A DNA stretch of 64,000 bases from Candidatus Eiseniibacteriota bacterium (GTDB taxonomy: Bacteria; Eisenbacteria; RBG-16-71-46). Below are positions 30,536 through 58,340 of the stretch, piece by piece. The stretch lies in the NCBI GenBank assembly GCA_963725865.1, contig CAVSAC010000010.1:451736-515735 (forward strand), in the 5' to 3' direction. Every line of letters starts with the position of its first letter. Within the stretch, counting starts at the first letter, position 1. A model generated the notes under the pieces. It saw only the letters and a program-made list of their open reading frames with translations. It was not told where the DNA came from and did not search any database. The position numbers and the translations under genes are program-made.

Positions 30536-31456
30536 ATGGCCCCGCCCGCACCCCTGGATCCCGCTCCGCTCGCCCTGCTGCCCGCGGCACCCGCGGACGA
30601 CGTTCCCGCCGCGCCGTGGCGCGGACTCGACGCGCTCTGGATCCAGGTCGCGGGCACGCTGTGCAATCTTGCGTGCACGCACTGCTTCGTTGCGTGCGGC
30701 CCGGGCGACCTGCACCACGCGCTCATGAGCCGCGCGGAGGTCGCGGCGCGGGTGGCCGAGGGACTCTCACTCGGCGTCCGCGAGGTCTACCTGACCGGCG
30801 GCGAGCCGTTCCTGCACCACGACCTGCTCGACATCCTGGCCGATACGCTGGCGGTCGCGCCGTGCACCGTGCTCACCAACGGCACCCTGTTCACGGCCGC
30901 GCGGCTCGCGGCACTGCGGCAGCTCTCGGACGCCGCGGCGTACGCGCTCGAGCTGCGGGTGAGCCTGGACGGGGCGGACGCCGAGACGCACGACCGTTTC
31001 CGCGGCGCGGGCACGTTCGCGCGCACGCTCGCGGGACTGCGCGCCTGCGAGGCGCACGGCCTGCTGCCGATCGTGACGGTGACCCAGACCGAAGCGGAGG
31101 ACCCGCTGGCGTTCCGCGAGCGCGTCGTCGCCCAGCTGCGCGCCGCGGGGCTCGCGCGTCCGCGGTTGAAGGTCCTGCCGCTGTTCCGGCTCGGGCGCGA
31201 GCGCGCGCGCACGCGCGACTACGACGCCACCGAGACGCTCGCCGGCCTGCCCCCGGAGCAGTTCGACCCGACGCGGCTCCAGTGCACGAGCGGCCGCGCG
31301 GTCACCGCGCGCGGCGTCTACGTCTGCCCGCTGCTGGTCGACGCGCCCGCCGCGCGCATGGGCAACACGCTCGCCGCGGCGCAGCGGCCGTTCCCGCTCG
31401 CGTACGGCGCGTGCTTCACCTGCCACGTGACCGGCATGAGCTGCGGCAACGGATGA
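30536..31456 (+). CDS. Radical SAM enzyme with C-terminal SPASM/twitch-like Cys cluster
   Basis: CNLACTHCF (CxxxCxxC), a GGEPF glycine-rich SAM motif, and C-terminal CPLL...CFTCHVTGMSCGN cysteines. Confidence 0.65.
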   Translation: MAPPAPLDPAPLALLPAAPADDVPAAPWRGLDALWIQVAGTLCNLACTHCFVACGPGDLHHALMSRAEVAARVAEGLSLGVREVYLTGGEPFLHHDLLDILADTLAVAPCTVLTNGTLFTAARLAALRQLSDAAAYALELRVSLDGADAETHDRFRGAGTFARTLAGLRACEAHGLLPIVTVTQTEAEDPLAFRERVVAQLRAAGLARPRLKVLPLFRLGRERARTRDYDATETLAGLPPEQFDPTRLQCTSGRAVTARGVYVCPLLVDAPAARMGNTLAAAQRPFPLAYGACFTCHVTGMSCGNG

Positions 31457-32238
31457 GCGCCGTGCGGCTCGCGCTGTTCGGGGGCGTCTACAGCAACGAC
31501 CTCGCCCTCGCGGCCACGCTCGCGGACGTGGCGACGCGCGGCGCCGACGCGACCTGGTGCCTCGGAGATCTCGGCGGCTTCGGCCCGCATCCCGATCGCG
31601 CGGCCGCGCGGATGCGCGAGGCCGGGGTGCCGATGCTGCGCGGCAACTACGATGACTCGATCGGCCACGCGCGCGCCGACTGCGCGTGCGGCTACAGCGA
31701 CCCGCGCGACGAGCACTTCGCGCAGCGCTCCTACGACTACACCCTCGCGCGGACGGCCGAAGCGCATCGCGCGTGGATGCGCGGGCTGCCCGAGCAGCAC
31801 CGCTTCGTCGCCGGCGACCGGCGAGTGCTGCTGTGCCACGGCTCGCCGCGGCGCGTGAACGAGTTCCTGTGGGCGAGCACCTGCTCGGACGCGTTCCTCG
31901 AGCGGCTGTGCGACGAGCACGCGGCCGACGTGATCGCGTGCACGCACACCGGGCTCCACTGGCATCGGGCGCTGCCATCGGGCCGTCATGTGGTGAACGT
32001 GGGCGCGATCGGGCGCCCCGCGAACGACGGCGGCCCGCACGTGTGGTACGCGGTACTCGTGCTCAGTGCGGACGTGCGCGTGGAGTTCCGCCGCGTGGAC
32101 TACGACCACGAGGCGCTGGCGCGCGAGATGGAGTCCGAGGGCCTGCCCGACGAGTTCGTCGCCACCATCCGCAGCGGCTGGTGGACCACCTGCCTCGAGA
32201 ACCTGCCCGCCAAGGAGCGCCGCGCCGGGCGGTTCTAG
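31453..32238 (+). CDS. Metallophosphoesterase (calcineurin-like; YfcE/MJ0936-like)
   Basis: GDLGGFGP, GNYD, CHGSP and THTG metal-ligand motifs. Its ATG overlaps the radical SAM stop (ATGA). Internal start of track ORF 30433..32238. Confidence 0.65.
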   Translation: MSAVRLALFGGVYSNDLALAATLADVATRGADATWCLGDLGGFGPHPDRAAARMREAGVPMLRGNYDDSIGHARADCACGYSDPRDEHFAQRSYDYTLARTAEAHRAWMRGLPEQHRFVAGDRRVLLCHGSPRRVNEFLWASTCSDAFLERLCDEHAADVIACTHTGLHWHRALPSGRHVVNVGAIGRPANDGGPHVWYAVLVLSADVRVEFRRVDYDHEALAREMESEGLPDEFVATIRSGWWTTCLENLPAKERRAGRF

Positions 32239-32383: not shown

Positions 32384-35300
32384 ATGGTCGGCTTCCGAGC
32401 CAAAGCGTTGCTGATCGCGAGCATCGCCCTCGGCGGCGCGCTGTCCGCGGCGGCCGCCCCGGCGGGGTCCGGCTCCGCCGCGGGCCGGCCTGCGGGTGCC
32501 ACGCTGCTCGGCTCGATCGACGTGAGCGCCTCGCAGACGGGCCGCACGCTGCGCCCCGGCGACGCGCGGGTGCCGGTGTACGTGCTGGCGATGACGTACA
32601 ACGCCCTGCTGGTGGGCTCGGAGACAGTCACCGAGATCGCGTTCGAGAACCGGACCGCCGGCCCCGGCAACACGGCGCAGAAGGACACCGAGTGGCAGTC
32701 GCTCGCGCTCTCGTGGAGCCGCAGGGCCGCCGACGCGCTCAGTCCGGCGAGTGCCACCCGCGCCGCCGCCTGGACGGGCGGCACGGTGCGCTTCACGGGG
32801 CTCAACATCCCGTTCGGCATCGGCGACTCGGCGTACGTCGTCGTCTGGGGGGCACCCTCGCTCGCCGCACGTGACGCGGACGCGCTCGATCTCCGTATCC
32901 CGTCCACCGGATCGATCCTCACCGGAGGCGGCTCGTCGGTGAACGTGACGAACGGCAGCACGCTGGATCCGGCCGCGAGCTTCCCGGTGGACGGCATGTC
33001 CGCCGCGCAGGTCATGCTGAGCCCGGTGCTCACGCCGTACTTCCCGATCGGCGCCGCCGGACAGCTCGCGCTCGCGGTGCGCGTCCCGCCCAACGGCTAC
33101 GCGGCGGACCGCCTCGAGCGACTCGAGTTCGTCAACCTGGGCACCGCCGCGGTCCACTCCGACATCGCCGCGCTCGATGCGTGGATCGACGACGGCGACG
33201 GGATCTACGAACCCGGTCAGGAGGCGTGGCTCGGCGCTCCGGCGTTCACGGGCACCAGCTGGGTGCTCGGGCTGGCGAGCCCGATCGACCTCCCGCTGCC
33301 CACGGGCGCGTGGATCTACCTGACCGTCGACGTCTCCGAGCAGGCGAAGGAGGGCGCCACCGTCCAGCTCGCGCTCCCGGGCGGTTCCGCCGGCACGCAG
33401 GCGTTCACCGTGACGAGCGGCAATGACGGTCCGAACGACCGCGCGATCGCCAATCCGGCCCAGAGCGTGATCAGCCTGGTCGACCGCGTCGTGGTCTCGC
33501 CCATCCCGCTGCCCTCGGGATTCGCGCGGCCGGGCGAGGCGCGCGTGCCGCTGTTCGCGATGACGGCGACCAACGTCTACACCGACGCGCGCGCGCTGAC
33601 CGGCCTCGTGCTCACGCACGCCACGTCCGGGCCCGGCACCGCCGCCGAGCGCGACGCCGAGATCCAGCGCGTCGAGCTGCGGCTGGACGGGAACTCCGAC
33701 GGCGTGCTCGGAGACTTCGTCAGCGACCCGGTGCTCGCCACCGCGGTGTTCGCGAACGGGCGCGCCAGCTTCTCCGGATTCTCGGTCTCCCTCGCGCCGG
33801 GCGCCAAGCGCTCCCTGTTCGTGACCGGCGACGTCTCGCTCCTCCACGCCGCCGACGGCGACCCGCTCGCGGCGACCGTCGGCACGCGCGAGGACCTCGC
33901 GTTCGACCGCAGCACCACGCTGTCGGGCTCCTTCCCGCTCTCCTCGGCGAACGCCTGGACGGTCGACGGCATGATCGCGGCCCAGGTGGGCAACGCCGGC
34001 GCGCCGCCGCAGACGCTCGCGCCGAACGACGGCCCGCGCGAGGCGCTCGATCTGCTGGTGCACGGCAATGGCTACCAGGACGACGTCCTCCAGCGGCTCT
34101 CGGTGACCAACCTCGGCACCGCCGGCACCACGGACCTCGCCGAGGTGCGGCTGTGGCGCGACGGGGGTGACGGGGCGTTCAACGCGGGCGCGGGCGACGA
34201 CGCCGACCTCGGAGCGATGGCCGCGGGAGCGGACACGTGGGACAGCGGAGCGCTGGCGGTCGCGCTGGGCCCGGCCGGGACCCGTCTGTTCGTCTCCGTG
34301 AGCGCCGGCGGCGCGCCGGCCGACTCCGCCACCGTGCGCCTCGCGGTGCCGGTGAAGGGCATCGCCGTGGCGTCCGGGAACGACGGCCCGGTCGACGTGC
34401 CCGTCGCCAATCCGGACGCGCTGCTGCTCGCCAACCGCGGCCTGCTCGCGAGCCTCGCGTTCGACGCCGCGGCGGTGACCGCGGGCCAGACCGTCACACT
34501 CACGATGACGGTGCGCAGCACCGCGTCGGAGTCCCTCCTCGCGGTGACTCCGAGCGCACCGGCGCTCGCCGGCAGCGCCCGGCTCGGCCCGCTGTCCGGA
34601 CCGAGCCCCGCGAGCCGCGCGCTGGCACCGGGCGCCAGCGGCGCGTTCGCCTGGACGTACTCCGCCGACAGCGCGGGCACGGTCCACGCCATCGCGAACG
34701 CCGCGGGCACCGGCGCCTCGAGCGGGCAGCCGGTGTCGTCGCTCGACACCCGGTCGGGCGCGCTTCGCGTGTTCGCGCGTGCCGACAGTCTCCCGCTGCA
34801 GGTCTTCGACGCCATGCCGCAGTCGGTGACCCGCGGCCAGCGCGGCGTGCTGCCGCTCTACCTGACGTTCGTCCATCCCGATCCCGACGGCAGCCCGGTG
34901 AAGGTGACGGGATTCACCGTGCGGCTCGAACGCGAGGATGGCTCGGACGTGGCGCCGGCCTCGCTGCTCGCGCGCGCCGTGGTGCTCGCCGCCTCCGAGA
35001 CGCTGCTCACCCGCTCCACGCTCGAGACCAGCGGCGCGGACCTGGATCTGGCGCTGGCGATCCCCGCCATCGTGGCGGGATCGGATCCCACCACCCTGGT
35101 GCTGGCGCTCGACGTCGCCGATTCCACCGTGGTGCCCGACTTCCGCATCGTGATCGCCGCGGCGAGCCGGGTGCGCGCCGAGGACGGCGCGACCGGTGCT
35201 CCCGTCACGATCCGGCTCCAGTCGCCGACCTGGCCGGTGCGCAGCGGGCTCGCCCGCGTCCAGGCCGGCGCCACCCAGCTCGAAGTCGCGGCGGCGCCGC

Positions 35301-37051
35301 TGCCGCCGGTGCGCGCGAGCCGCGGCCAGACCGAGGTGCCGCTCGGCACGTTCACGCTGTGGAGCCCGGGGGTGGGCGGCGTCACCACCGACGTGCGGGT
35401 CGGAGCGCTCGATCTCAAGCTCGCCGACACGCTCGGGGCGCGGATCGACCGGCCCGGCCGCATCGTGCGCCGGCTGCGCCTGCGCAGCGGCACGCAGCTG
35501 CTGGCCGACCGGCTGGTCGCCGCCGGCGCCGACAGCGTGCTGGCGCTCACGCTCTCGCCGCTGCTCGCGGTGCCGGTGAACACTCCGACCGAGATGCGGC
35601 TCACCGCCGAGCTCTCCGACACCGCCTCGCTGGGACCGTTCCGGCTCGAGCTCGGGGACAGCGCGCGCTTCGACGCCCGCGATCCCAACACCGGCAACCG
35701 GGTGCCCATCCGGTTCGCGAGCCCGCCGCTGCACGGCCCCGCGGTGCTGGTGGAGGAGCGTGCGGATTCGGCGTGGGTGCTGGGCGTGCCGGAGCTGCCC
35801 GCGGAGGTCGGGCTGGGCGCGCGCGGGGTGACGGCGCTCTCGGTGCGCCTGAGGCACCCGGGTGGTGCGCGCACCGGCCGGCTGCGAGTCGACTCGCTGG
35901 TCGTGCGCTGCGTCGACGCCTCGGGCACGGGCTTGGCGCCGGCGCCCTACCTCGACCGGCTGCAGGTGCTGTGGAACGGAGCGCTCGCCGCAACGGTCTC
36001 CGATCCACCCGCCACCGGCAGCACGCTGCTCGCGATGCTGCCCGGCTTCACGCTCGAGAGCGGCGACAGCGCGCGCGTGACGTTCGTGCTGGACTTCGAG
36101 TCCGCCGCCCCGACCACCACCTTCGCACTCGAGCTGGGCGCCGCGGGGCTCGACATCGACGACGCCAACCTCGACCTGCCGGCGCTGCCGGTGGTGGAGA
36201 ACGACGGGGAGTTCCCACTGCGCTCGGGCGTGGCGCGTCTGGTGGCGCCCTCGCGCCTGGTCCAGGTGGACCTCGACGACGCGATGCCCGCGGTGCTCGC
36301 GCCCGACGGCCAGCTGCGGACGGCGGGTGTCGTGCGGCTGACGAACGGCGCGGCGCCGGGCTCGGGCCCGGTGCGGATCTCCTATCTCGCGGTGCGCGCC
36401 CGCGGCGCCGCCGGCGACGTGCCGCTCGGCGGCGAGGTCTGGCGCGTGCAGCTGACCCGGGACGGCGTGCTGTTCGCGAGCGGCGCGGCGCTCACCTCCG
36501 ACTCGCTCACGTCCGTGGTCTCGTTCCCCACCGAGCTGCAGCTCGAGCCCGGGGTGCCCGTGGATCTGACGCTGCGCTTCGCGACCCGCCCGGGGCCCGC
36601 GCTGGCCTCGTTCGCGCTCGCGCTCGAGGCGGCCGACATCGGCGTGGTGCAGCCGGGCAGTCCGCTGCTCGACGTCTCGGTGCTGCCGACTCCGGGGCGC
36701 ACCTTCCCGCTCGCGACCTCGGTCGGCAGCTATGCCGCCGCGTCGCTGGCCGGGAGCTGGTCGAGCTTCCCGAATCCGTTCGTGCCCGAGCAGGGCGGCA
36801 CCACGTTCGCCTACTACCTGCCGGCGGCGGGGCGCGTTTCGCTCGCGATCTGGACCGCGCGCGGCGAGCGCGTCGCCACGTTGCTCGACGGCGAGGCGCG
36901 CGCGGCGGGACTCCACCAGAGCGACGTCTGGAACGGCCGCAACGGGCGCGGCGCGCTGGTGCAGCCGGGCGTGTACGTGGCCGAGCTGACGGTGCGGCTC
37001 GACGACGGCCGCTCCGAGCAGCTGCGACGCAAGGTGGCGGTGGTCCGGTGA
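32384..37051 (+). CDS. Giant (~1555 aa) secreted repeat protein with C-terminal FlgD-Ig-like / T9SS-type sorting domain
   Basis: GGGAGG RBS then ATG MVGFRAKALLIASIALGGALSAAAA, a signal peptide. Two ~330-aa tandem repeats each end in ...TSGNDGP. A distinct C-terminal half follows. The C-terminus ...SFPNPFVPEQGGTTFAYYLPAAGRVSLAIWTARGERVATL... is T9SS-CTD-like. Confidence 0.6.
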   Translation: MVGFRAKALLIASIALGGALSAAAAPAGSGSAAGRPAGATLLGSIDVSASQTGRTLRPGDARVPVYVLAMTYNALLVGSETVTEIAFENRTAGPGNTAQKDTEWQSLALSWSRRAADALSPASATRAAAWTGGTVRFTGLNIPFGIGDSAYVVVWGAPSLAARDADALDLRIPSTGSILTGGGSSVNVTNGSTLDPAASFPVDGMSAAQVMLSPVLTPYFPIGAAGQLALAVRVPPNGYAADRLERLEFVNLGTAAVHSDIAALDAWIDDGDGIYEPGQEAWLGAPAFTGTSWVLGLASPIDLPLPTGAWIYLTVDVSEQAKEGATVQLALPGGSAGTQAFTVTSGNDGPNDRAIANPAQSVISLVDRVVVSPIPLPSGFARPGEARVPLFAMTATNVYTDARALTGLVLTHATSGPGTAAERDAEIQRVELRLDGNSDGVLGDFVSDPVLATAVFANGRASFSGFSVSLAPGAKRSLFVTGDVSLLHAADGDPLAATVGTREDLAFDRSTTLSGSFPLSSANAWTVDGMIAAQVGNAGAPPQTLAPNDGPREALDLLVHGNGYQDDVLQRLSVTNLGTAGTTDLAEVRLWRDGGDGAFNAGAGDDADLGAMAAGADTWDSGALAVALGPAGTRLFVSVSAGGAPADSATVRLAVPVKGIAVASGNDGPVDVPVANPDALLLANRGLLASLAFDAAAVTAGQTVTLTMTVRSTASESLLAVTPSAPALAGSARLGPLSGPSPASRALAPGASGAFAWTYSADSAGTVHAIANAAGTGASSGQPVSSLDTRSGALRVFARADSLPLQVFDAMPQSVTRGQRGVLPLYLTFVHPDPDGSPVKVTGFTVRLEREDGSDVAPASLLARAVVLAASETLLTRSTLETSGADLDLALAIPAIVAGSDPTTLVLALDVADSTVVPDFRIVIAAASRVRAEDGATGAPVTIRLQSPTWPVRSGLARVQAGATQLEVAAAPLPPVRASRGQTEVPLGTFTLWSPGVGGVTTDVRVGALDLKLADTLGARIDRPGRIVRRLRLRSGTQLLADRLVAAGADSVLALTLSPLLAVPVNTPTEMRLTAELSDTASLGPFRLELGDSARFDARDPNTGNRVPIRFASPPLHGPAVLVEERADSAWVLGVPELPAEVGLGARGVTALSVRLRHPGGARTGRLRVDSLVVRCVDASGTGLAPAPYLDRLQVLWNGALAATVSDPPATGSTLLAMLPGFTLESGDSARVTFVLDFESAAPTTTFALELGAAGLDIDDANLDLPALPVVENDGEFPLRSGVARLVAPSRLVQVDLDDAMPAVLAPDGQLRTAGVVRLTNGAAPGSGPVRISYLAVRARGAAGDVPLGGEVWRVQLTRDGVLFASGAALTSDSLTSVVSFPTELQLEPGVPVDLTLRFATRPGPALASFALALEAADIGVVQPGSPLLDVSVLPTPGRTFPLATSVGSYAAASLAGSWSSFPNPFVPEQGGTTFAYYLPAAGRVSLAIWTARGERVATLLDGEARAAGLHQSDVWNGRNGRGALVQPGVYVAELTVRLDDGRSEQLRRKVAVVR

Positions 37052-39087
37052 GCGCCCCGACCGCGACCCGTCGCCGCGTCGCCCTGGCCCGCGCGGCATG
37101 CGTGCTGGCGCTGGTGTCCTGCGCCGCGGGCCACTCGCGGGCCGCCGACGACGCGGGCACCCGGTCGGTGTTCGCGACCGGCGCCGGCAACCGCGCCCTC
37201 GCGCTCGGATCCGCGTTCTGCGCGCTGGCCGACGACGCCTCGGCGCTGCTCTGGAACCCGGGCGGACTCGGCGGCGTGGAGCGCGCGGAGTTCCAGGTCG
37301 GCGAGGCGAGCCTCAACGACCTCGGCTTCCGCGAGACGTTCGTGGGCTACGTCCATCCCGACTGGCGCTGGGGCACCGCCGCACTCGCGGTGCGGCACTA
37401 CGGCGTGGACGGGATCGACGGCCGCGACGCGCGCAACCTGCCGACCGGCGAGTTCGGGGACCGCGAGACCGAGTTGGCGCTCGGCTACGGCCGGGCGCTG
37501 GGCGAGGCCTTCCGCGTCGGCCTCGCGGGGCGCGTGCGGCGACAGGATCTGGCGGGCCGCTCCGGCATGGGCGTGGGGGCCGATGCCGGGGTCGAGTTCC
37601 GGCCCGGCGCGGTGTTCGACTCCGAGGCGGGCTGGATGCGCGACCTGCAGGTGGGCGTGGCGCTGCAGAACCTGATCGAGCCCTCGATCCGGCTGGACCG
37701 CGCGAGCGTGCCCGATCCCCTCACGCTGCGCGCCGGGCTGTCGATCGCGCGTCCGCTCGCGCTGGGCGGCGTGATCGCGAGCGTCGAGCTCGAGCAGGTG
37801 CGCGACGTGGGCGCGCGCGCCCACGCCGGGATCGAGTGGAACGCGCATCCGCTGCTGTCGCTGCGCAGCGGCCTGGACGACGGCGTGCTGACCGCAGGCT
37901 TGGGCATTCGACTCGGCTCGAGCGCGTTCGAGTACGCGTTCGCCGATCCCGCCACCGGTCCCACCCATCGCGCCGGACTGACATGGCGCTTCGGCCGCTC
38001 GGTGACCGACGCGCGGCAGTTCGCGGAGCGTGCCGAGGAGGAGCGCGTGCAGCAGCGGCTGGTGGCGCTCGAGCGCGAGCGCGAGCGCGATCGCGTCGCG
38101 AACCTGATGGCCGGCGCCGAGGCGGCGCGCGCCGCCGGGCGCTCGGAGGAGGCGCTCGAGGCGCTCGCCACGCTGCTCGCGATCGATTCGACGTTCGCGC
38201 CGGCGCGCGCGCTGCGGGTGGCGAGTCTGGGCGACCGCGCGCGCGCGCTCGAGTCCGCGGGCGACTGGGCCGAGGCGTCGGTGGCGTGGGCGCGCGCGCT
38301 CGGCGAGGCCCCCGGGGACACCACCGCCGCCGCGGGTCTCGCCCGCACCCGCGCCGAGAGCGATCTGCGAGCCGTGCGCTCGGCGGAGATCCGCAAGGCC
38401 TTCGCCGCCGCGCTGGACGCGTTCGCGGCCGACGACCTGGCGGGCGCGCGCGCGGGCCTCGCCCGCATCCTCGCGCAGAACCCGGGCGACGGCGAGGTGC
38501 AGGCGATGCTGAGGCGCGTGGAGGCGGCGATCGGACGGCGGACCGAGGCGTGGCTGCGGCAGGCGGACGCCCTGCGGCAGGCCGGCTCGCTCGACGAGGC
38601 CGCCGCCCTGATCGAGCGCGCGCGCAGCCTCGACCCGCGCACGCCCGGACTCGCGGCGGCGACCGGCGCGCTCGCGCGCGCCGCGGCGCCGGGCACTCCG
38701 CCGCGCGCGAGCGCGCCGGCCCGGACCGCGCGGCCCGCGGCACCGGCCGCCCCGGCGGTCCTCTCGCACGAATCGGAGCGCCAGGTCGCGGAACTCTATC
38801 GGCGCGGCCTCGACGCCCTCCAGCACGGCCAGTCGGACGACGCGCTGCGCGCGCTCGAGCAGGTGCGCGCGCTGCGCCCGGGCTACGCGCGCGTGGACGA
38901 GGTGCTCAAGCGCGAGTACCTGACGCGCGGCATGGAGCTGTTCTCGACCGGGCGCCTGGACGCCGCGGTGCGGATGTGGGAGAGCGCGCTCCGGGTGGAT
39001 CCGCACGATCCGCGCGCGCTCGGGTACCTGGCGCGCGCGCACGAGCAGCTGGCGCGCTCGCGCGAGATCTCGCAGGACGAGCCATGA
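37048..39087 (+). CDS. PorV/PorP(SprF)-like outer-membrane beta-barrel fused to a C-terminal coiled-coil/TPR domain
   Basis: GTG overlapping the upstream stop (GTGA). Signal peptide is present. The N-terminus ...FATGAGNRALALGSAFCALADDASALLWNPGGLG matches the PorV/PorP N-terminal signature. The barrel ends ~aa 350 with ...AGLTWRFGRS. About 330 aa of Ala/Arg/Glu-rich TPR-like repeats follow. Confidence 0.55.
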   Translation: MSAPTATRRRVALARAACVLALVSCAAGHSRAADDAGTRSVFATGAGNRALALGSAFCALADDASALLWNPGGLGGVERAEFQVGEASLNDLGFRETFVGYVHPDWRWGTAALAVRHYGVDGIDGRDARNLPTGEFGDRETELALGYGRALGEAFRVGLAGRVRRQDLAGRSGMGVGADAGVEFRPGAVFDSEAGWMRDLQVGVALQNLIEPSIRLDRASVPDPLTLRAGLSIARPLALGGVIASVELEQVRDVGARAHAGIEWNAHPLLSLRSGLDDGVLTAGLGIRLGSSAFEYAFADPATGPTHRAGLTWRFGRSVTDARQFAERAEEERVQQRLVALERERERDRVANLMAGAEAARAAGRSEEALEALATLLAIDSTFAPARALRVASLGDRARALESAGDWAEASVAWARALGEAPGDTTAAAGLARTRAESDLRAVRSAEIRKAFAAALDAFAADDLAGARAGLARILAQNPGDGEVQAMLRRVEAAIGRRTEAWLRQADALRQAGSLDEAAALIERARSLDPRTPGLAAATGALARAAAPGTPPRASAPARTARPAAPAAPAVLSHESERQVAELYRRGLDALQHGQSDDALRALEQVRALRPGYARVDEVLKREYLTRGMELFSTGRLDAAVRMWESALRVDPHDPRALGYLARAHEQLARSREISQDEP

Positions 39088-41147
39088 GCGCCCGCGCCCG
39101 CATCAGCATGCGCGTGGTGGTGATCTCGGCGACGGTGGCGATCGTGGCCGCGGCGGTGCTGTGCGTCGGAGCGGTCGCCGAACGCAACACGCGGCAGGCC
39201 CTCACCCGCGAGGCGCAGGCGCGACTGCTGCTGGAGGCCCGCAACCTCGCGCTCACCGGGGCCGGCGCGCTGCTGAGCGAGCTGCCCGAGCTCACGCTCT
39301 GCCCGGTGGTGCGCGAGCTCACCGAGTCGCGGCCCGAGCTGGCGTTCGCGGTGGTGCTCGATCACCGCGGCGTGGTCCAGGGCCACCGCGACGCGCGCGC
39401 CCTGGGGGGCACGTGGCGCCTGCCCGCAGGGCTCGCGCCGGTCGCCACCACCGCCCGCCTGCGCGCGGGCGAGGCGCTGCTCGGCGATCCCGACCTGCTG
39501 GTGGCCTCGGTGCCCGTGGCCAGCGCCGCCGGGCAGCGGCTGGGCCTCGCGGTGGTCGGCCTGCGCCGCGCCTACGTCGAGCAGACCGTCGCCGCCGCGC
39601 GGCGACAGCAGCTGCTGCTGGTCGCGCTGGTGCTGGCGGCGGGGAGCGTGCTCGCGTTCCTGCTGCTGACCGCGCTGCTGCGTCCCATCGGGGCGCTGCG
39701 CGCGGGCCTCGAGCGCATCGGGCGCGGCGACCTCGATGCCCCGATCGCGCTCCGCAGCGGGACCGAGCTGGGACTGCTCGCCGACGCGGTCGACGACATG
39801 GCGGCCCGCCTCAAGGTCGCGCGGCACGAGATGGTCGAGAAGGAACGGCTGGCGCGCGACGTCGAGCTGGCGCGTCAGATCCAGGAGCACCTGCTGCCGG
39901 CCGGCTCCCGCACGGTCGGCGACTTCACGCTGTGCGGCTCGCACCGCGCCGCGGCCGAGGTCGGCGGCGACTACTTCGATCTGCTCCCGCTCGCGGACGG
40001 ACGCTGGGCGGTCGCGATCGCCGATGTCTCCGGCAAGGGGCTGGGCGGCTGCCTGGTGATGTCGATGGTGTCCGCGCTGCTGCGGGCGCTGCGCGCCGAG
40101 CATCACTCGCCGGCCGCGCTGCTCGCGGCACTCGAGGAGCAGCTCGCTCCCACCCTGACCCCCGGCACCTTCGTGACGATGTTCTACGGCACCCTCGACC
40201 CGGCGAGCGGCACGCTTCAGTACGCCTCGGCCGGCCACTCCCCGCTGCTGGTGTGGCGCGCGGCCGCGGCCCAGGTCGAGTGGCACCCCACGCGCGGCAT
40301 CCCGATCGGCGCGGTGCGCGGCGGAGTGCTGCGCGGCACGCTGGAGGATCGCACCGTGACGCTGGAGCCCGGCGACCTGCTGTTCCAGTTCACCGACGGC
40401 GCCAGCGAGGCCACCGACCCGGCCGAGCGGGAGTTCGGCTTCGACGGCATCGAACGCGTCGTGATCGAGCACGCCGCCCGCGGTGCCGAGGCGGTGGTCG
40501 CGGCACTCGGCGACGCGCTCGCGCGGTGGTCCGGCGGCGGGGCGCCGGCCGACGACCAGACCCTGCTCGCGGTGGCGCGCGCCGCGCCGCTCGCCGGCGC
40601 GATCCCGGCGCGAGCCCCGCTCGCGGCCGCCGACCCGCTCGCGCTGCTCGAGCACGCGCGCGCGCGCGGCCATCGACTGGAGCTCGCTCCGCGGCTCGCG
40701 GCGCTCGAGGCGCTGGGCCCGTGGATCGCCGGCCTCCCCGACGTCGGCGCGCTCGACGCGGACGCGCGCCTGGTCATCGAGTCGGCGCTCCACGAGCTGT
40801 GCGCCAACGTGGTGGAGCACGGATCGGCGCCGGGCGCCGAGGCGCCGCTCGAGCTCTGGTGGCTCCCGGCCATCGATCCGGCCGGCGGAACCGCCGAGCG
40901 CGTGCGGGCCGGGTGCTTCGTGCTCCGCGACCGCGGCTTCCCGTTCCGCCCCGAGCGGCGCCATCCGTTCGATCCCGCGCACCACGAGGCGTGGCGTCGC
41001 GGGCGTGGTCTGGGGCTCGAGCTGATCCACCGCGCGCTGAGCGAAGTGGTCTTCCGGCCGGGGACGGCCGCCGGCAATCTCACGCTGCTGGCGTTCGATC
41101 CCGGACGCGCCGTTGTCCAACCCGAGGAGCGACGACATGGCGGATGA
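39084..41147 (+). CDS. Membrane sensor: TM + HAMP + PP2C (SpoIIE/RsbU-type) phosphatase fused to HATPase_c (RsbW-like Ser kinase)
   Basis: Its ATG overlaps the upstream stop (ATGA). Two TM helices flank a periplasmic region. HAMP (…LRPIGALRAGLERIGRGDLDAPI…), PP2C motifs (GGDYFDL, ADVSGKG, QFTDGASEA), and a C-terminal LVIESALHELCANVVEHG H-box/N-box. Confidence 0.75.
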   Translation: MSARARISMRVVVISATVAIVAAAVLCVGAVAERNTRQALTREAQARLLLEARNLALTGAGALLSELPELTLCPVVRELTESRPELAFAVVLDHRGVVQGHRDARALGGTWRLPAGLAPVATTARLRAGEALLGDPDLLVASVPVASAAGQRLGLAVVGLRRAYVEQTVAAARRQQLLLVALVLAAGSVLAFLLLTALLRPIGALRAGLERIGRGDLDAPIALRSGTELGLLADAVDDMAARLKVARHEMVEKERLARDVELARQIQEHLLPAGSRTVGDFTLCGSHRAAAEVGGDYFDLLPLADGRWAVAIADVSGKGLGGCLVMSMVSALLRALRAEHHSPAALLAALEEQLAPTLTPGTFVTMFYGTLDPASGTLQYASAGHSPLLVWRAAAAQVEWHPTRGIPIGAVRGGVLRGTLEDRTVTLEPGDLLFQFTDGASEATDPAEREFGFDGIERVVIEHAARGAEAVVAALGDALARWSGGGAPADDQTLLAVARAAPLAGAIPARAPLAAADPLALLEHARARGHRLELAPRLAALEALGPWIAGLPDVGALDADARLVIESALHELCANVVEHGSAPGAEAPLELWWLPAIDPAGGTAERVRAGCFVLRDRGFPFRPERRHPFDPAHHEAWRRGRGLGLELIHRALSEVVFRPGTAAGNLTLLAFDPGRAVVQPEERRHGG

Positions 41148-41487
41148 CTTCGAGATCGAGATCGATCGCAGCCACCCACCGGCCACCGTGGTGCGCGTGC
41201 GCGGCCGCGTCGATGGCCGCACCGCCCCGCGCCTGCTGCGCGAGAGCCTGGCGGCTCGCCGCGCGGGTGCGCTGCTGCTGCTGAACCTCGCCGAGGTGCG
41301 TTTCATCTCCTCGGCCGGAGTCGGCGCGCTCATGGTGCTGGCCGAGACGCTCGGCAAGGAAGGTGGCGGACTGCGGCTGGCTCCGGTGTCGGGCGCGGTG
41401 CGGACCGTGCTCGGCCTGCTCAACCTGGACCAGTTCCTCAGGATCGGCGAGACCGAGGACGAAGCGCTCGGCCGGCTGGGCAGCTGA
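41137..41487 (+). CDS. STAS-domain anti-sigma-factor antagonist (RsbV/SpoIIAA-like)
   Basis: MADDFEIEIDRSHPPATVVRVRGRVDGRTAPRL...LNLAEVRFISSAGVGALM, a STAS fold with the phosphorylatable Ser in the FISSAG motif. GAGGAG RBS. Overlaps the upstream gene by 11 nt. Confidence 0.7.
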   Translation: MADDFEIEIDRSHPPATVVRVRGRVDGRTAPRLLRESLAARRAGALLLLNLAEVRFISSAGVGALMVLAETLGKEGGGLRLAPVSGAVRTVLGLLNLDQFLRIGETEDEALGRLGS

Positions 41488-41488
41488 C

Positions 41489-42820
41489 ATGGGCGAGCCC
41501 GCACGCGATCGCACTCCAGGCCGCGGCCGGCGCCCGCGGCCGCCGCGGCTGACGCCGCTCCCGCCGGGACCGCGCGAGTTGCCGGACGCGCGGCTGGCGG
41601 AGCGGCGCGAGAACTCGCTGATGGCACTGTTCGAGCTGAGTCACGAACTCGATCTGTCGCGCGACCCGTTCGCGATGGGCGAGCTCGCGCTCCTCAATCT
41701 GCTGGGACACTTCGGGACGCCGCGCGCCGCGGTGTGGGGCTTCCCCGCGGACGATCCCGACGCGGCCGTGCCGCTGGCGGCCTTCGGGCTGCCGGAGGGC
41801 GAGGCGGCCGCACTCGGACCGCGGCTGCGGCAGGCGCCCGAGCCGGCGGGCGCGGCCGACGGCGAACCGAAGGAGCTCGAGCTGCCGGCCGCGGCGCGAC
41901 AGGCGGGATTCGCGGCAGTGGTGCCGATCCTCGCGCGCGATCGGCGCATCGGCGTGCTGGCGCTCGGCGCGCGGGTGGGCGGCGAGCCCTACCGGAGCCT
42001 CGACCTCGACCACCTGCGGACCGCGGCGCGCATGCTGGGCGCGGCGCTCGAGAACGCCCGCCTCCAGCAGCACACCGCCGAAGTCAACCGCCGGCTGCGC
42101 CGCGCGAACGAGGAGCTCACCCAGGCCGACCACCTCAAGGCGCAGTTCGTCCAGAACGTGAACCACGAGATGCGCACGCCACTCGCGGTGCTGCAGGGCT
42201 ACCTCGAGATCCTGGCGGACGCCGAGGGCGCGAGCGAGCTCCAGATGCGCGCGTGCGAGGCGATGCTGGTGCAGATCGAGCGGCTGACGCGCATGGTGCG
42301 GGACCTGCTCGAATACTCCGCGCTCTCCGACGGGGCCGGACGCGCGACGCTCGAACCGGTGGCTTTGCCGGCCGCGCTCGAGCGCTACGCCGCCGAGCGC
42401 CGCCCCGGCGTGCTCGCGGGGCTGCGCACGCTCGAGACGCGGATCGAGGAACCCCTGCCGGCCGCGCTGGCCGATCCCCGCCGTCTCGAGCGCACGCTCG
42501 ACGCGCTGGTCGACAACGCGATGCGCTTCACCCCGCCCGGCACCCGGATCGTGATCCGCGCCGCCGTGCTCCAGCGCGCGGACGAGCGCTGGCTGGGGAT
42601 CGAGGTCGTGGACGACGGTCCGGGGATCGAGCCGGACCGTCTCGAGCGGCTGTTCGACGCGTTCCGCCAGGGGGACGGCTCGAGCACCCGCACCGTCGGT
42701 GGCCTCGGCCTCGGGCTCGCGCTGGCGCGCGAGCAGGCGGCCAGCATGGAAGGCGGGCTGGAGGCCGAGAGCACGCCCGGTCGGGGGGCCACGTTCCGAC
42801 TGCTGCTGCGGCCGGCGTGA
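41489..42820 (+). CDS. GAF-domain sensor histidine kinase (HisKA + HATPase_c), no adjacent response regulator
   Basis: VNHEMRTPLAVLQGYLEIL H-box and DDGPGI...GGLGLGLAL G-boxes. N-terminal GAF-like region. Its ATG is 1 nt after the STAS gene stop. Confidence 0.8.
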   Translation: MGEPARDRTPGRGRRPRPPRLTPLPPGPRELPDARLAERRENSLMALFELSHELDLSRDPFAMGELALLNLLGHFGTPRAAVWGFPADDPDAAVPLAAFGLPEGEAAALGPRLRQAPEPAGAADGEPKELELPAAARQAGFAAVVPILARDRRIGVLALGARVGGEPYRSLDLDHLRTAARMLGAALENARLQQHTAEVNRRLRRANEELTQADHLKAQFVQNVNHEMRTPLAVLQGYLEILADAEGASELQMRACEAMLVQIERLTRMVRDLLEYSALSDGAGRATLEPVALPAALERYAAERRPGVLAGLRTLETRIEEPLPAALADPRRLERTLDALVDNAMRFTPPGTRIVIRAAVLQRADERWLGIEVVDDGPGIEPDRLERLFDAFRQGDGSSTRTVGGLGLGLALAREQAASMEGGLEAESTPGRGATFRLLLRPA

Positions 42821-42850: not shown

Positions 42851-44212
42851 TCAGCGCGACTCGCCGCCGGCCTCGCCGCCCGCGGTGCCTTCTTGCGCGC
42901 GCTTCGCCAGCAGGGCCTCCCACGCCCGCATGCGGCGCGCGATCTCGGCCTCGTGCCCGTGAGTCGTCGGCTCGTAGAAGCGCCGGCCCACCAGCTCGTC
43001 CGGCAGGTGCTGCTGGTCGGCGATGCCGCCGGCCTCGTCGTGCGCGTAGCGGTAGCCGGCGCCGTAGCCGAGCTCCTTCATCAGGCGCGTGGGCGCGTTG
43101 CGGATCACCAGCGGCGGCGCCAGCGAGCCGCTCTCCTCGACCTCGGCCTGCGCCTTGCCCAGGCCCAGGTACACGGCGTTGCTCTTGGCCGCGGTCGCCA
43201 GGTAGGCGCAGCATTGGGCGATCGCCAGCTCGCCCTCGGGGGTGCCGAGCTGGTGATAGGCCTGGAACGCGGCCACCGCGATCACCAGCGCCTGGGGGTC
43301 GGCGTTGCCCACGTCCTCGCTCGCGAAGCGCACCAGCCGGCGCGCGACGTACAGCGGATCCTCGCCGGCGGCGAACATGCGCGCCAGCCAGTAGAGCCCG
43401 GCGTGCGGGTCGGAGTCGCGCAGCGACTTGTGGAGCGCCGAGATCAGGTTGTAGTGCTCCTCGCCCGCGCGGTCGTAACGCAGGTGGCGGCGCGCGAGCG
43501 CCTGGCGCGCGCTGTCGAGCGTGATGCGCCCCTGCACCGCCGCGGCCGCCGCCAGCTCGAGCGCCCCGAGCGCGCGCCGCGCGTCGCCGTCGCCGGCGTT
43601 CGCCAGCAGGTCGAGCGCCTCGGGATCGGCGGTGAGCGAGCCGCCGATGCCGCGCTCGGGGTCGGCGAGCGCGCGCTCCAGCAGCGTGCGCAGGTCGGCG
43701 GGCGCGAGATCCTTCAGCACCACCACGCGGGCGCGCGAGAGCAGCGCCGCATTCACCTCGAAGGAGGGGTTCTCGGTGGTGGCGCCGATCAGCACGATGT
43801 CGCCCTTCTCGACGTGCGAGAGGAACGCGTCCTGCTGAGCCTTGTTGAAGCGGTGGATCTCGTCCACGAACAGCAGCGTCGGCCGGCCCGAGCGGCGGCG
43901 CTCGAGCACCGCGCGCTCCATGGTCTCGCGCACCTCCTTCACGCCCGAGAGCACGGCGCTGAACTGCACGAACCGCACGCCGGCGGTCTGCGCGAGCAGG
44001 CGCGCGATGGTGGTCTTGCCGGTGCCCGGCGGACCCCACAGCACGACGGAGGCGAGGTGCTTGCCGTCGCGCATGAGCGCGAGCGGCGAGCCCGGCGCGA
44101 ACAGGTGCTCCTGCCCGACCAGCTCGTCGAACGTCCGCGGGCGCATGCGGTCGGCGAGCGGGCTGCGGCTCGCGGACTCAGGCGCTACACCGCCGAACAG
44201 GTCCTCGCTCAT
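42851..44212 (-). CDS. rarA: Replication-associated recombination protein A (RarA/MgsA AAA+ ATPase)
   Basis: MSEDLFGG...[16 protein letters not shown]...[15 protein letters not shown]...[18 protein letters not shown]. Internal ATG of track ORF 42851..45040. Its ATG overlaps the cbiO stop. Confidence 0.85.
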
Positions 44213-45066
44213 GACGCATCCGGCTCCCGCCGCGCGGCGAGGCCGCGCGCGAGTGTCTCGGCCGCCTCGTCGACCGAGGTCGGGCGGCCGAGCCTCAGGC
44301 CCTTCTCCTCGAGGCGCTGGAACAGCTCGGCCAGCACCGGCGGCTCGATGTTGCTGCGACGCAGCATGCCGGGATCGCGGAAGATGGTGGCGGGCGGCCC
44401 CTGCGCCACGATCTCGCCACCGCGCAGCAGCACGTAGACCTGGTCCGCCATCGCGGGGACCACGTTCACGTCGTGGGTCGCGATCACCAGCGAGACGCCG
44501 TGGTCGCGGTGCAGGCGGTTGAGCAGCTCGACCAGGTCGCTGCGCGACGCCGGATCGAGCCCTTCGAACGGCTCGTCGAGCACCAGCAGCTCGGGCTGCA
44601 ACACCAGCGCGCCGGCGAGCGCCACCTTGCGCTTCTCGCCGCCCGAGAGGTGATGGCAGACCTTGTGACGCAGGTGCGCGATGCCCACCATCCCGAGCGC
44701 CTCCTCGACCAGCCGCTCCACCTCGGCATCGGGGTAGCCGTACGAGCGCGGCGAGAACGACACGTCGTCCCACACCGTCGGCGCCAGGATCTGCTCCTCG
44801 ACGTTCTGCAGCAGCACGCCGATGCGCTCGCGGATGCGGTTGAAGTGGCGCGCGGGGCTGACCCCGAACACCGACACCTCGCCCTCGGCCGGCTCCAGCA
44901 GGCCCAGGATGTGGTAGAGCAGCGTGGTCTTGCCGCAGCCGTTCGGCCCCAGGATCACCACGCGCTCGGACGGCGCGACCACGAAGTCGAGCCCGCACAG
45001 GTGGACCTCGGTGCGGTCGGGGTACACGTGGCGCACGCACGAGACCCGGACGATCGGCTCGCTCAC
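44209..45066 (-). CDS. cbiO: ECF/cobalt transporter ATP-binding protein (CbiO)
   Basis: GPNGCGKTT Walker A, LSGGEKRKVALAG signature, LVLDEP Walker B. GTG start overlaps the cbiQ stop (GTGA). Confidence 0.8.
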   Translation of the reverse strand: MSEPIVRVSCVRHVYPDRTEVHLCGLDFVVAPSERVVILGPNGCGKTTLLYHILGLLEPAEGEVSVFGVSPARHFNRIRERIGVLLQNVEEQILAPTVWDDVSFSPRSYGYPDAEVERLVEEALGMVGIAHLRHKVCHHLSGGEKRKVALAGALVLQPELLVLDEPFEGLDPASRSDLVELLNRLHRDHGVSLVIATHDVNVVPAMADQVYVLLRGGEIVAQGPPATIFRDPGMLRRSNIEPPVLAELFQRLEEKGLRLGRPTSVDEAAETLARGLAARREPDAS

Positions 45067-45792
45067 GGCGTCCTCCACAGCAGAACGGCCGCCGCCGCCG
45101 CCGCGACGCCCGCCAGCGCCACGCCGAGGTCGGCGCGCGTCCACTCGGCCCAGTGCCGGCAGCCGCACATGCGCCCCGAGTGGCCGCGCAGCTGGAGGAC
45201 CGCGACCAGTCGTTCGCTGCGCTCGAATCCGTACAGCACGAGCGTTCCGAGGCCCTCGCCCGCGAGCGTGAGCCGGCGCGGTGGCGGCGCGCTCGTCCCG
45301 CCGCGCAGCCGCATCGCGCGCCACAGGCGCTCGATCCGCGCCAGCAGCTCGAACAGCGCCCGATAGGTCAGGAACAGGCCGTCGCCGGCCGCGCGCGGCA
45401 GCAATCGCGAGAGCGGGGCGAACAGGTCGGGGTAGGGCGTGGTCCCCACCAGCCACACCGCGGTGAGGCTCGCGGTGATCGGCCGCGCCAGCAGTCGCAG
45501 CGGCGTCGCCCAGGTGCCGTCCCAGGCGGCGAACACGAACACCAGCGAGAACACGATCGGGTATCCGGCGGCCGCGAGCACCAGCCGCACGGGCAGGCGG
45601 CTGGTGGCCGCCAGCGCGAGCGCGCACCCGAACAGCGCACCCACCAGCGCGAGCGACGGCGCCAGCACCGCGAGCGCGATGAGCCCGGCCGCGAGCAACA
45701 GCTTCGACAGCGCGCTCGCGCGGTGCCACAGCGTGCCCCCGGCGCTCGCGTACCAGTCGATGCGCGAGATGGTGTCGATCATCGCGTTCTCC
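45063..45792 (-). CDS. cbiQ: Cobalt ECF transporter T component (CbiQ)
   Basis: MIDTISRIDWYASAGGTLWHRASALSKLLLAA... are CbiQ-family TM helices. Sits between cbiM and cbiO. Confidence 0.75.
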
Positions 45793-46459
45793 CCGCAGTC
45801 GGCAGCAGATCGGGCCGCACCCGCGCCAGGAATCGTCCGGTCCCGTACGCGACCAGCGTCTCGATCGCGATCCCCAGCAGCCACATCGGCAGCGCCACCG
45901 CGCCGAGGGCCATCGTACGCCCGGCGTGGAGCGGATGGGCGCCGTGGAGCGGCTCGAACGCGAACCCGGGGCGCAGCTGCATCGCGGCCACGATCACCAC
46001 CACCCACAGCAGCCCGGACACCGCCTGGGCGCCTGCCGTGGCGGCCGCGAGCGCGCCCGGCGCGCTCATGCGGGCGGCGAAGGCGCGGTACAGCGGGCGC
46101 GCGAGCGCGGTGCCGGCCCCCAGCACCAGCGCGTTGAGCCCGATCACGGTGAAGCCGCCGTGCCCGACGAACGCCAGGATGGTGACCGCGATGAACACCA
46201 CCTGGTAGCCCCCCGCCGCACCCACCAGCACTCCGAGCGGGCCGATCAGGCTCAGATGGTACTCGAGCGGCCCGAGCGGGATCTCGATCGCCATCGCCGC
46301 CAGCACCAGGGCGCCGAGCGCGCTCTGGTAGCCCAGCCGTCGCCGCGCGTCGCCCTCGCCGCCGCGCGCGCTGATGGCCAACAGCACGAGCGCGAGCAAC
46401 AGGGCGGGCACCCACACCATCAGCGGCAGCAGCCCGTCGGGAATGTGCAGGTGGGCCAT
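45779..46459 (-). CDS. cbiM: Cobalt transport protein CbiM
   Basis: MAHLHIPDGLL is the N-terminal CbiM signature. Polytopic. Confidence 0.8.
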   Translation of the reverse strand: MAHLHIPDGLLPLMVWVPALLLALVLLAISARGGEGDARRRLGYQSALGALVLAAMAIEIPLGPLEYHLSLIGPLGVLVGAAGGYQVVFIAVTILAFVGHGGFTVIGLNALVLGAGTALARPLYRAFAARMSAPGALAAATAGAQAVSGLLWVVVIVAAMQLRPGFAFEPLHGAHPLHAGRTMALGAVALPMWLLGIAIETLVAYGTGRFLARVRPDLLPTAGRTR

Positions 46460-48022: not shown

Positions 48023-48805
48023 TCACGCCGGCACGCTGCGCCGCAGGCGCAGCATCATGAGCACGCCGAACAGCGCGAGCGCGACGCTGGTGAGCTGACT
48101 CTCGGTGAACGGCACCCCGCCGATCGTCGCGAGCACGGCGCCGGGCTCGTAGGCGCGCGTCAGGTCGATCGGGATGCGCACCAGGGAGAACGCCAGCACG
48201 AAGCCCCAGAACAGCGTGCCGGGGGGCGCCAGCCGCTTGCGCAGCGCCCAGGCCAGCGCGAACAGCCCCAGTCCGGCGGCGGCGTTGTAGAGCTGCGACG
48301 GATGCACGGGCACCGTCCCGTAGTCGAGCCCCGCGAAGGAGTCGGCCGGGAACTCGACGCCCCACGGCAGCCGGGTGGGGCGCCCGTAGCAGCAACCGTT
48401 GAGGAAGCATCCGACGCGCCCGAACATGGTGCCCAGGGCCAGCGACGGGGTGAGCGCGTCGGCCACGGTCCACATCGGCTGGTGGAGCCGCCGCGCGACC
48501 AGCAGGCCGGCCACCGTGCCGCCCACGATGCCGCCATAGAGCGTGAGCCCGCCCTGCCACAGTGCCAGCACGCTGCCCCACTGGCGGCGGAAGTCCTCGA
48601 GGTGCTCCATCACGTAAAGCAGCCGCGCCCCCAGCACCGAGCACACGAGCGTGGCCAGGATGATGGTCACCAGCGCGTCCTCGTCGATCCGCAGCCGGCG
48701 CGCCTCGCGCAGCGCCAGCCAGGTGCCGAACAGGAACGCGATCGCGAGCATCAGGCCGTAGGAGCGGATGTGAAGCGCCCCCCAGTGGAGGATTTCGGGA
48801 TGCAC
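48023..48805 (-). CDS. lgt: Prolipoprotein diacylglyceryl transferase
   Basis: ...RSYGLMLAIAFLFG...GARLLYV...MFGRVGCFLNGCCYGRPT (Lgt signature G-x-x-GCF-x-GCC-x-G). Probable GTG start (VHPEILHW) 4 nt after the rodA stop; alternative ATG at 48853. Confidence 0.75.
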   Translation of the reverse strand: MHPEILHWGALHIRSYGLMLAIAFLFGTWLALREARRLRIDEDALVTIILATLVCSVLGARLLYVMEHLEDFRRQWGSVLALWQGGLTLYGGIVGGTVAGLLVARRLHQPMWTVADALTPSLALGTMFGRVGCFLNGCCYGRPTRLPWGVEFPADSFAGLDYGTVPVHPSQLYNAAAGLGLFALAWALRKRLAPPGTLFWGFVLAFSLVRIPIDLTRAYEPGAVLATIGGVPFTESQLTSVALALFGVLMMLRLRRSVPA

Positions 48806-48809
48806 GGAA

Positions 48810-49991: not shown

Positions 49992-50025
49992 TGGCGTGTC
50001 GAGCGGCGGAACGTGCAGGCGGAGT

Positions 50026-53184: not shown

Positions 53185-53187
53185 CGA

Positions 53188-54378
<1,191 letters not shown>

Positions 54379-57413: not shown

Positions 57414-57430
57414 CCGCACTGGAGCGAACG

Positions 57431-58317: not shown

Positions 58318-58340
58318 GCGTGTACGGCTCGCGCGATCGA

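Follow-up and report, generated by a model that had tools for sequence, protein, structure and literature searches.

A PorV/PorQ-like barrel with a predicted periplasmic tetratricopeptide repeat arm, encoded between a giant secreted protein and an sCache-HAMP sensor in a Candidatus Eiseniibacteriota genome

The forward strand of contig CAVSAC010000010.1, from a Candidatus Eiseniibacteriota bacterium, carries at positions 37048-39087 of the 64-kb stretch analysed here (the window) a gene for a protein that joins a putative outer-membrane β-barrel to a C-terminal tetratricopeptide repeat (TPR) region. The G+C content of the window is ~75% and its raw lists of open reading frames are full of spurious frames. 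In the frame of the barrel-TPR gene the third-position G+C is 0.87-0.96 along the entire length, including the alanine-rich 3' half that encodes the TPRs, and public data already hold an identical 679-amino acid (aa) protein (P0001), called on a 1.16-Mb contig. The reading frame is thus confirmed as real, together with the fusion of barrel and TPRs that it encodes. Its GTG start overlaps by 4 nt the stop codon of the upstream gene, which encodes a giant secreted protein (GTGA), and its stop codon overlaps by 4 nt the ATG of the downstream gene, which encodes an inner-membrane sensor (ATGA). Because of these overlaps on both sides the three genes are regarded as one tightly coupled operon (Table 1). 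A paralog search of the window found no second barrel and no second arm encoded in it.

Table 1. Positions in the window of the genes and protein segments discussed in the text, with the evidence for each
Feature	Position	Strand	Extent and evidence
Giant secreted protein	32384..37051	+	1555 aa; third-position G+C frame plot; Sec signal peptide (hydrophobic aa 6-27)
C-terminal domain of the giant protein	36704..37048	+	last 115 aa, ends RKVAVVR; FlgD-Ig-like / T9SS-CTD-like sandwich
Barrel-TPR gene	37048-39087	+	679 aa; third-position G+C frame plot
Signal peptide	37048..37146	+	aa 1-33; hydrophobic segment aa 10-29; A-x-A/(A)DD cleavage context
PorV/PorQ N-terminal signature segment	37147..37284	+	aa 34-79; PorV_fam alignment from aa 45; short helical in AF2 model
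14-stranded outer-membrane β-barrel (predicted)	37285..37992	+	aa 80-315; AF2 strands, pLDDT >90; Foldseek PorV matches
Single 44-residue charged helix	38002..38133	+	aa 319-362; AF2/DSSP; leaves barrel after invariant G316
TPR-like helical solenoid, ~4 helix pairs and cap	38134..38685	+	aa 363-546; AF2 helices 366-546; Pfam TPR_12 357-411, TPR_2 500-531
Flexible Pro/Ala-rich linker	38686..38766	+	aa 547-573; pLDDT <50 at aa 550-564
C-terminal TPR module, two TPRs and capping helix	38767..39075	+	aa 574-676; Pfam TPR_14/19/1/16/11 at 622-670
Inner-membrane sensor	39084..41147	+	687 aa; transmembrane segment, periplasmic sCache_3_2, transmembrane segment, HAMP, PP2C (SpoIIE), RsbW-like HATPase_c_2 (Pfam)
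STAS anti-sigma-factor-antagonist-type protein	41137..41487	+	116 aa; Pfam STAS E 2e-14; TIGR00377 E 2e-14
GAF-HisKA-HATPase histidine kinase	41489..42820	+	Pfam; start uncertain: 41489, 41579 or 41621

The AlphaFold2 (AF2) model of the barrel-TPR protein, built with 60 homologs, has a mean predicted local distance difference test score (pLDDT) of 90.3 and places 14 strands between residues 80 and 315, with helices only thereafter, so that the barrel proposed earlier from the sequence alone is predicted and the TPR region follows it, being neither in front of it nor embedded in it. In a Foldseek comparison with the PDB the top matches were the PorV chains 8gl6_F (E 1e-10) and 6h3i_F (E 2e-9), with TM(target) scores of 0.63-0.66, both from the SprA-PorV translocon complex of F. 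johnsoniae; FadL and OmpG rank behind these chains for the barrel. PorV is likewise the sole PDB match by sequence, and no soluble family is nearer. Among profile models, the NCBIfam PorV_fam (NF033709) matches at 80 bits (E 2.3e-22, profile positions 10-204 of 326), PorQ and PorV2 match more weakly, and PorV_fam is matched by all 60 aligned members of the barrel-TPR family (best E 4e-36). Conservation in the protein is highest in the segment at aa 34-79, with a mean top-residue frequency of 0.78; this segment aligns with PorV 6h3i_F from residue 36 onward and contains, at aa 54-75, the PorV-type N-terminal motif GSAFCALADDASALLWNPGGLG pointed out in the earlier note. The signal peptidase I site in front of it, A-x-A/(A)DD, is conserved among the homologs. 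A lipoprotein reading based on a lipobox-like LVSC was rejected, the cysteine not being conserved. The likeness to PorV, PorP and FadL put forward in the earlier note therefore holds as a PorV/PorQ likeness; membership of PorP/SprF or FadL is rejected, since no PorP/SprF model of NCBIfam or Pfam matches the protein at E<=1 and FadL is a weaker structural match than PorV. By its predicted fold and its motif the protein belongs to the PorV/PorQ superfamily, and it is not filed as PorV or PorQ because the curated cutoffs are missed and its architecture is not the barrel-only one of those families.

The last barrel strand (aa 306-315) carries the sequence R-A-G-L-T-W-R-F, which fits the β-signal pattern polar-x-G-x-x-aromatic-x-aromatic. 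The glycines G310 and G316 do not vary among the homologs, and F315 is conserved in at least 90% of them. The terminal AGLTWRF strand was thus correctly recognized at the outset, although it lies at aa 309-315 and not at ~350. A scan of species-representative genomes, made with patterns derived from an 11-sequence alignment (the 60-sequence alignment was too diverse and a scan with the single protein gave no relatives), retrieved dozens of barrel-only relatives from Elusimicrobia, Riflebacteria, Poribacteria, Cloacimonadota, Eisenbacteria and others, and in alignments with the query these extend to residue 315-317, where their chains end in ...HRxSxxx[F/W]. AGLTWRF is, as judged from these alignments, the ancestral terminal β-signal, and the region beyond it is an addition after a true β-signal because the barrel-only relatives end at that very strand. 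The structural statements on this barrel-TPR architecture can be made with high confidence.

The extension past the terminal strand is real and comprises 364 aa after F315, not ~330, which are all-helical in the AF2 model. The ERE-rich stretch of the earlier note corresponds to the long single helix, with 10 acidic and 9 basic residues. The multiple TPR-like repeats that had been proposed are recovered both by Pfam, whose TPR families (TPR_2, TPR_14 and TPR_19 among them, these at E 1e-15 to 1e-17) match the C-terminal half at E 1e-13 to 1e-17, and by Foldseek, in which the helical half matches the solenoids of designed or consensus TPR proteins, SPY and P58IPK. Conservation along the chain is uneven: the mean top-residue frequency is 0.66 in the terminal TPR module, 0.59 in the barrel, 0.55 in the first TPR block, 0.53 in the long helix and 0.33 in the linker. 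Within the arm, conservation is thus highest in the terminal TPR module, and no internal segment of the protein is less conserved than the linker. The terminal module is also detected in distant versions of the protein from Ignavibacteria, Caldithrix and Elusimicrobia.

Barrels with an even number of strands have both termini in the periplasm, and since 14 strands are predicted here the arm should be periplasmic, as had been proposed. The opposite arrangement, in which the chain past the barrel re-enters the pore and exposes the helical domain at the surface, has a parallel in intimin/invasin-type proteins, in which the barrel is N-terminal and a C-terminal passenger is exported, but it is highly improbable here. 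The barrel is PorV/FadL-like and its conserved aa 34-79 correspond to the part of PorV and FadL that lies inside the barrel, type V passengers are rich in β-structure and are not TPR solenoids, the helix begins only three residues past the β-signal in the AF2 model, and the associated sensor domain is itself periplasmic. The earlier view that a soluble domain past the β-signal is unusual for substrates of the β-barrel assembly machinery was partly right and yet overstated, since OmpA-type proteins are a precedent for the order barrel-then-periplasmic domain among such substrates and this order is the rule within the family studied here. Proteins of the OmpA/OprF type share with the barrel-TPR protein the leading barrel, the internal β-signal and the periplasmic C-terminal domain, but they have eight strands instead of 14 and OmpA_C instead of a TPR solenoid, and there is no homology. 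The TPR-barrel exporters (PgaA, BcsC, PelB/PelC and Slam) also combine a periplasmic TPR scaffold and an outer-membrane barrel in one polypeptide or complex; in these, however, the TPRs are N-terminal to the barrel and the barrel folds differ. Exporter models match only marginally (PgaA E 0.32 and TPR_Slam E 0.38 for the barrel-TPR protein, BcsC in 2 of 60 family members).

The giant protein encoded upstream has a core of ~1440 aa with no Pfam match, its sole Pfam match being a weak FlgD_ig at the C-terminal end. Searching with the full-length protein retrieved 94 homologs of 1483-2711 aa, with a common ~1500-aa core and variable N-terminal additions; the last 279 aa used alone as query returned no homologs, probably because low-complexity words saturated the candidates. 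The UniRef name of one homolog is 'T9SS type A sorting domain-containing protein', T9SS being the type IX secretion system. In its C-terminal domain (CTD) the giant protein is 46-58% identical to its orthologs, whereas the core reaches 34-42%. AF2 models the last 330 aa (pLDDT 93.2) as all-beta, with three tandem immunoglobulin (Ig)-like sandwiches, and the Foldseek matches of this model are dominated by generic Ig/fibronectin type III, adhesin and pilin structures. A profile of 16 CTDs matches the Ig domain of FlgD (E 4e-5) and, end-to-end, the CTD of PorU (6za2_A, residues 1061-1154 of 1156, E 9e-5), and Pfam recognizes FlgD_ig in 15 of these 16 domains, CHU_C in three and Por_Secre_tail in two. 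The predicted fold of the tail is consistent with a T9SS-type CTD and is not diagnostic of one. The CTD of the giant protein is presumed to be the ligand of the barrel. The extreme C-terminus of the giant proteins, ...LRKVAVVR, is almost invariant even at 26-30% overall identity (RKIAVLR, RKVAVIR; P0264-P0355), and a free C-terminal peptide as conserved as this could serve as a ligand in its own right, for instance that of the TPR arm. In PorA the last strand of the CTD is reported to matter for activation of PorY (PMC12152298). Elsewhere in the window, a 317-aa protein (5046-5999, + strand) matches the giant-CTD profile weakly with its C-terminal part (aa 236-299; E 1e-5) and may be another CTD-bearing secreted protein.

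The sensor encoded downstream has transmembrane segments at aa 5-34 and 174-207, and its sCache domain is taken to be periplasmic because it is flanked by these two segments. The STAS protein that follows is presumably the substrate of the phosphatase and kinase domains of the sensor; its gene is downstream in 9 of 11 distinct orthologous loci, and one of the two exceptions (L008) stops at a contig end. The third downstream gene, for the GAF histidine kinase, is present in L001 and absent from L003 and L004, and is hence a variable accessory of the module. In the Krumholzibacteria-type locus L004 the sensor (8381-9859) retains sCache_3_2-HAMP, its output being HD-GYP (HD_5/HD) in place of PP2C-HATPase_c_2, and no STAS gene follows.

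Searching for the fusion in other genomes, as the earlier note had recommended, showed it to be common. At E<=0.001 a word-indexed search gave 139 proteins. Of the best 120, nearly all are homologous over the full length, with 655-716 aa, 39-74% identity and 94-99% coverage. When 1.84 billion cluster representatives (50% identity) were searched exhaustively with a profile, 1,629 matched at E<=1e-30; most of the best 150 of these are ~630-700 aa long and match end-to-end, the remainder being mostly shorter fragments and three much longer proteins. The homologs are mostly named 'TPR repeat protein' or are unnamed or hypothetical, and one is named 'PorV/PorQ family protein' by NCBI. Full-text literature searches found no published description of the barrel-TPR fusion or of the three-gene module. 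The fusion is, by these matches, a widespread and functionally unannotated variant of a known barrel family.

The neighbourhood is conserved together with the protein. The order giant protein (core and CTD), barrel-TPR protein and sCache-HAMP sensor was found in 10 of 11 distinct loci with full-length homologs, the identity per module being 34-59%; the exception is L009, where the giant gene is nearby on the opposite strand, and the sensor adjoins every full-length homolog examined in these loci. With identities of 23-31% and, in some cases, with the genes in another order, the trio is also present in Ignavibacteria (L013; giant 1691 aa, barrel-TPR 631 aa, sensor 897 aa), in an unclassified locus (L014; 2734, 572 and 518 aa), in a Spirochaetia-labelled bin (L015; at least 1709, 577 and 550 aa), in Caldithrix (L017; at least 3303, 638 and 1188 aa) and in Elusimicrobia, where the gene order is shuffled in L020 and L040 and two modules are present in L058. 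On this single Elusimicrobia contig the two complete modules (1295-7076 and 11472-15474) lie ~7 kb apart, with far shorter CTD partners of 652 and 291 aa. The unit of barrel, arm, giant and sensor thus spans at least five deep lineages and >1,000 sequence clusters, none of them functionally annotated.

Co-occurrence was counted over all loci gathered, with hidden Markov models built from the parts of the module. A sCache-HAMP sensor lies within 6 kb in 15 of 17 loci with the C-terminal TPR module, versus 1 of 37 barrel-only loci (Fisher p = 2e-10, uncorrected for phylogeny). A CTD-like domain ending <=600 nt upstream on the same strand was found in 17/18 arm-bearing loci, 10/14 loci with other extensions and 17/43 barrel-only loci. 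From these two sets of counts it follows that the CTD partner goes with the barrel and the sensor with the arm. PorV/PorQ-like proteins that consist of the barrel alone occur frequently in Elusimicrobia, Riflebacteria, Poribacteria, Armatimonadota and Firestonebacteria (L016, L021, L022, L033, L053, L067 and ~40 other loci), and often a FlgD-Ig/CTD-like protein stands directly upstream, as in the 17 of 43 barrel-only loci counted above. These five phyla are not known for T9SS. The CTD-barrel pair may, on the strength of this distribution, predate T9SS or be independent of it. T9SS genes have been suggested in several phyla that belong to the Fibrobacteres-Chlorobi-Bacteroidetes (FCB) group besides Bacteroidota (PMC11285876).

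A mechanism can be proposed from this arrangement. The giant protein would be exported and then held at the cell surface by its T9SS-like CTD bound to the dedicated barrel, in a manner modelled on PorU-PorV, PorZ-PorQ and SprB-SprF (PMC9143113). The arm, with its long helix, solenoid, flexible linker and terminal module, could plausibly span much of the periplasm, and would cross it to make contact with the sensor at its sCache domain. Whether the surface protein or the barrel is loaded, ligand-bound, pulled or not yet exported would be relayed through HAMP to the cytoplasmic output, where the PP2C phosphatase and the RsbW-like kinase would act on the STAS protein as a partner switch; in the Krumholzibacteria-type version the output would be hydrolysis of cyclic di-GMP (c-di-GMP) by the HD-GYP phosphodiesterase. 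An outside-in direction of signalling is favoured because the outputs are enzymes and because the input half, sCache-HAMP, is the conserved half. A link of the arm to the sensor is suggested by the arm's tracking of the sensor, by the exchange of the output for HD-GYP while sCache-HAMP stays, by the high conservation of the terminal TPR module within the arm and by the periplasmic position of the sCache domain. The suggestion of the earlier note that the extension is a docking site for the downstream signalling proteins gains from the co-occurrence strong circumstantial support, the docking itself being what we infer. That the barrel holds the CTD of the giant protein and that the periplasmic arm couples the giant to the sensor has, in our estimate, close to an even chance of being correct. 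The wider proposal is more tentative, namely that Eisenbacteria-like bacteria and other FCB-related or neighbouring phyla possess an undescribed surface-signalling pathway, in which the giant on its barrel would report contact, ligand, load or export state via the arm directly to sCache and so drive a partner switch or c-di-GMP turnover.

Several observations weigh against this proposal. The 80 bits scored with PorV_fam fall short of the 90-bit curated cutoff, and the equivalog models for PorV (NF033710, 14.4 bits, cutoff 250) and PorQ (NF033711, 36.1 bits, cutoff 220) score far below theirs. The CTD of the giant protein resembles T9SS CTDs weakly (E ~1e-4), and a fold search with the three-domain tail puts PorU at rank 34 only. 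The T9SS core genes (SprA/Sov, PorK/L/M/N and PorU) are absent among the scanned genes of the window, and the barrel-only relatives include some in phyla not known to have T9SS (Elusimicrobia, Poribacteria and Riflebacteria). Shared ancestry inflates the co-occurrence statistic, 12 of the loci, counting the window, being orthologs, and regulation of the operon by the sensor could be enough to explain why the genes are adjacent.

This last point also belongs to a different explanation, in which the protein is an accessory of secretion or assembly. The arm would then capture the giant protein in the periplasm, as a receptor or chaperone that binds, for example, the RKVAVVR end or the CTD, and would pass it on to the barrel or the translocon; the sensor would only regulate the operon or else monitor CTD that has not been exported, in the way that PorA is monitored by PorY. 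Export systems often use TPR domains as scaffolds, the TPR parts of PgaA, BcsC and PelB and of PorW and PorE serving export machines, and members of the family weakly match the BamD, PilW, Tgl, LcrH and PrsT models. The C-terminus of the giant protein is near-invariant, there is precedent for a CTD that acts on a sensor in the periplasm (PMC12152298), and PorE carries TPRs and binds PorP (PMC9143113). However, the barrel-only relatives that have a CTD partner directly upstream (17/43) cope without an arm, and the presence of the arm tracks the sensor, 15/17 versus 1/37, and not the CTD partner. The accessory role is hence less probable, and a coupling of the giant protein to the sensor through the arm is preferred.

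In its gene pairing the barrel-TPR protein is most like the anchors of the PorQ/PorV or SprF type. It resembles PorV and PorQ in its predicted 14-stranded FadL-like barrel, in its N-terminal signature and in the Ig-like CTD of its partner, which resembles that of PorU, and every aligned family member matches the PorV_fam, PorQ or PorVQ2 models. It differs in the 364-aa periplasmic arm past the β-signal and in its sub-cutoff scores. In Bacteroidota, barrels of the PorV/PorQ type are known to act in the T9SS as passive shuttles or anchors, and they serve many cargoes, whereas the protein described here is found in Eisenbacteria-like bacteria and other candidate phyla and is apparently paired with one adjacent giant protein, with an sCache-HAMP sensor nearby. 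The PorP/SprF systems (SprB-SprF; PG1035-PorP-PorE) also have a giant surface-protein gene adjoining its own barrel gene and a barrel that anchors the CTD of its partner, as would be the case here, and in PorP-PorE the complex continues inward through a periplasmic protein with TPRs; the PorP-PorE-PG1035 and SprF-SprB complexes have been described (PMC9143113). They differ in that PorP/SprF is a separate barrel family, in that the TPR part is a separate lipoprotein (PorE) and is fused to the barrel here, and in that PorE has propeller and OmpA_C wall-binding domains, both of which the barrel-TPR protein lacks. Moreover, likeness of the giant protein's CTD to CHU_C (type B) is less frequent than its likeness to FlgD-Ig or type A.

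The PorE parallel suggests that the arm could be a structural tether, which would anchor the barrel and the giant protein to the T9SS ring or motor, to another TPR protein or to the cell wall as a PorE-like brace devoid of signalling. The PorP-PorE complex ties a type B CTD protein to peptidoglycan (PMC9143113), and a long rigid helix followed by a solenoid resembles a strut. Such a tether is nevertheless unlikely: Pfam and NCBIfam scans detected no OmpA_C, LysM, SPOR or other wall-binding domain in the protein, the flexible Pro/Ala linker in front of the most conserved module of the arm suits a reaching or docking arm better, and the association with the sensor would be left unexplained.

Docking of the arm on the sensor would place the protein beside FecA-FecR, RcsF-OMP-IgaA (OMP, outer-membrane protein), NlpE-CpxA and PorA(CTD)-PorY, with which it shares the proposed logic, an outer-membrane component presenting a periplasmic element to an inner-membrane transducer, and no homologous parts. 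Activation of the sensor kinase PorY by the CTD of PorA is a T9SS-linked precedent (PMC12152298). In contrast to these trans-envelope systems, the presented element here would be the C-terminal TPR arm of a PorV-like barrel, and the putative receiver an sCache-HAMP protein with PP2C/RsbW-like/STAS or HD-GYP output. If the arm does couple the surface protein to the sensor, it would constitute a new route for the transfer of information across the outer membrane and periplasm of Gram-negative bacteria, and T9SS-type surface display would be linked to partner-switch and c-di-GMP signalling. Two testable pairs of interactions are thereby defined, the CTD with the barrel and the TPR module with sCache.

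In the window, the giant gene is immediately preceded, on its own strand, by genes for a metallophosphoesterase (31453-32238) and, overlapping it by 4 nt, a radical SAM protein (30536-31456); they are probably unrelated neighbours, other genes being present at that spot in the homologous loci L001 and L003. On the other side, the regions 42851-46459 and 48023-54228, both on the - strand, contain housekeeping genes, judged from translations alone. The end of the module faces convergent genes for a RarA/MgsA-like ATPase and for a cobalt/ECF-type ABC ATPase and permease, with a possible cell-shape/cell-wall cluster beyond. The region 54592-59648 encodes four predicted secreted proteins of 713, 227 and 237 aa (+ strand) and 435 aa (- strand), with signal-peptide-like N-termini and no Pfam match, and the first-position G+C of the 435-aa protein is unusually low (0.52). 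Finally, a GWxTD-domain protein (60759-62030, - strand) adjoins a secreted Peptidase_M6 protease (immune inhibitor A-like; 62155-64000, + strand) that runs off the end of the window, and a Peptidase_M6/FG-GAP protein is likewise encoded near the module in L001.

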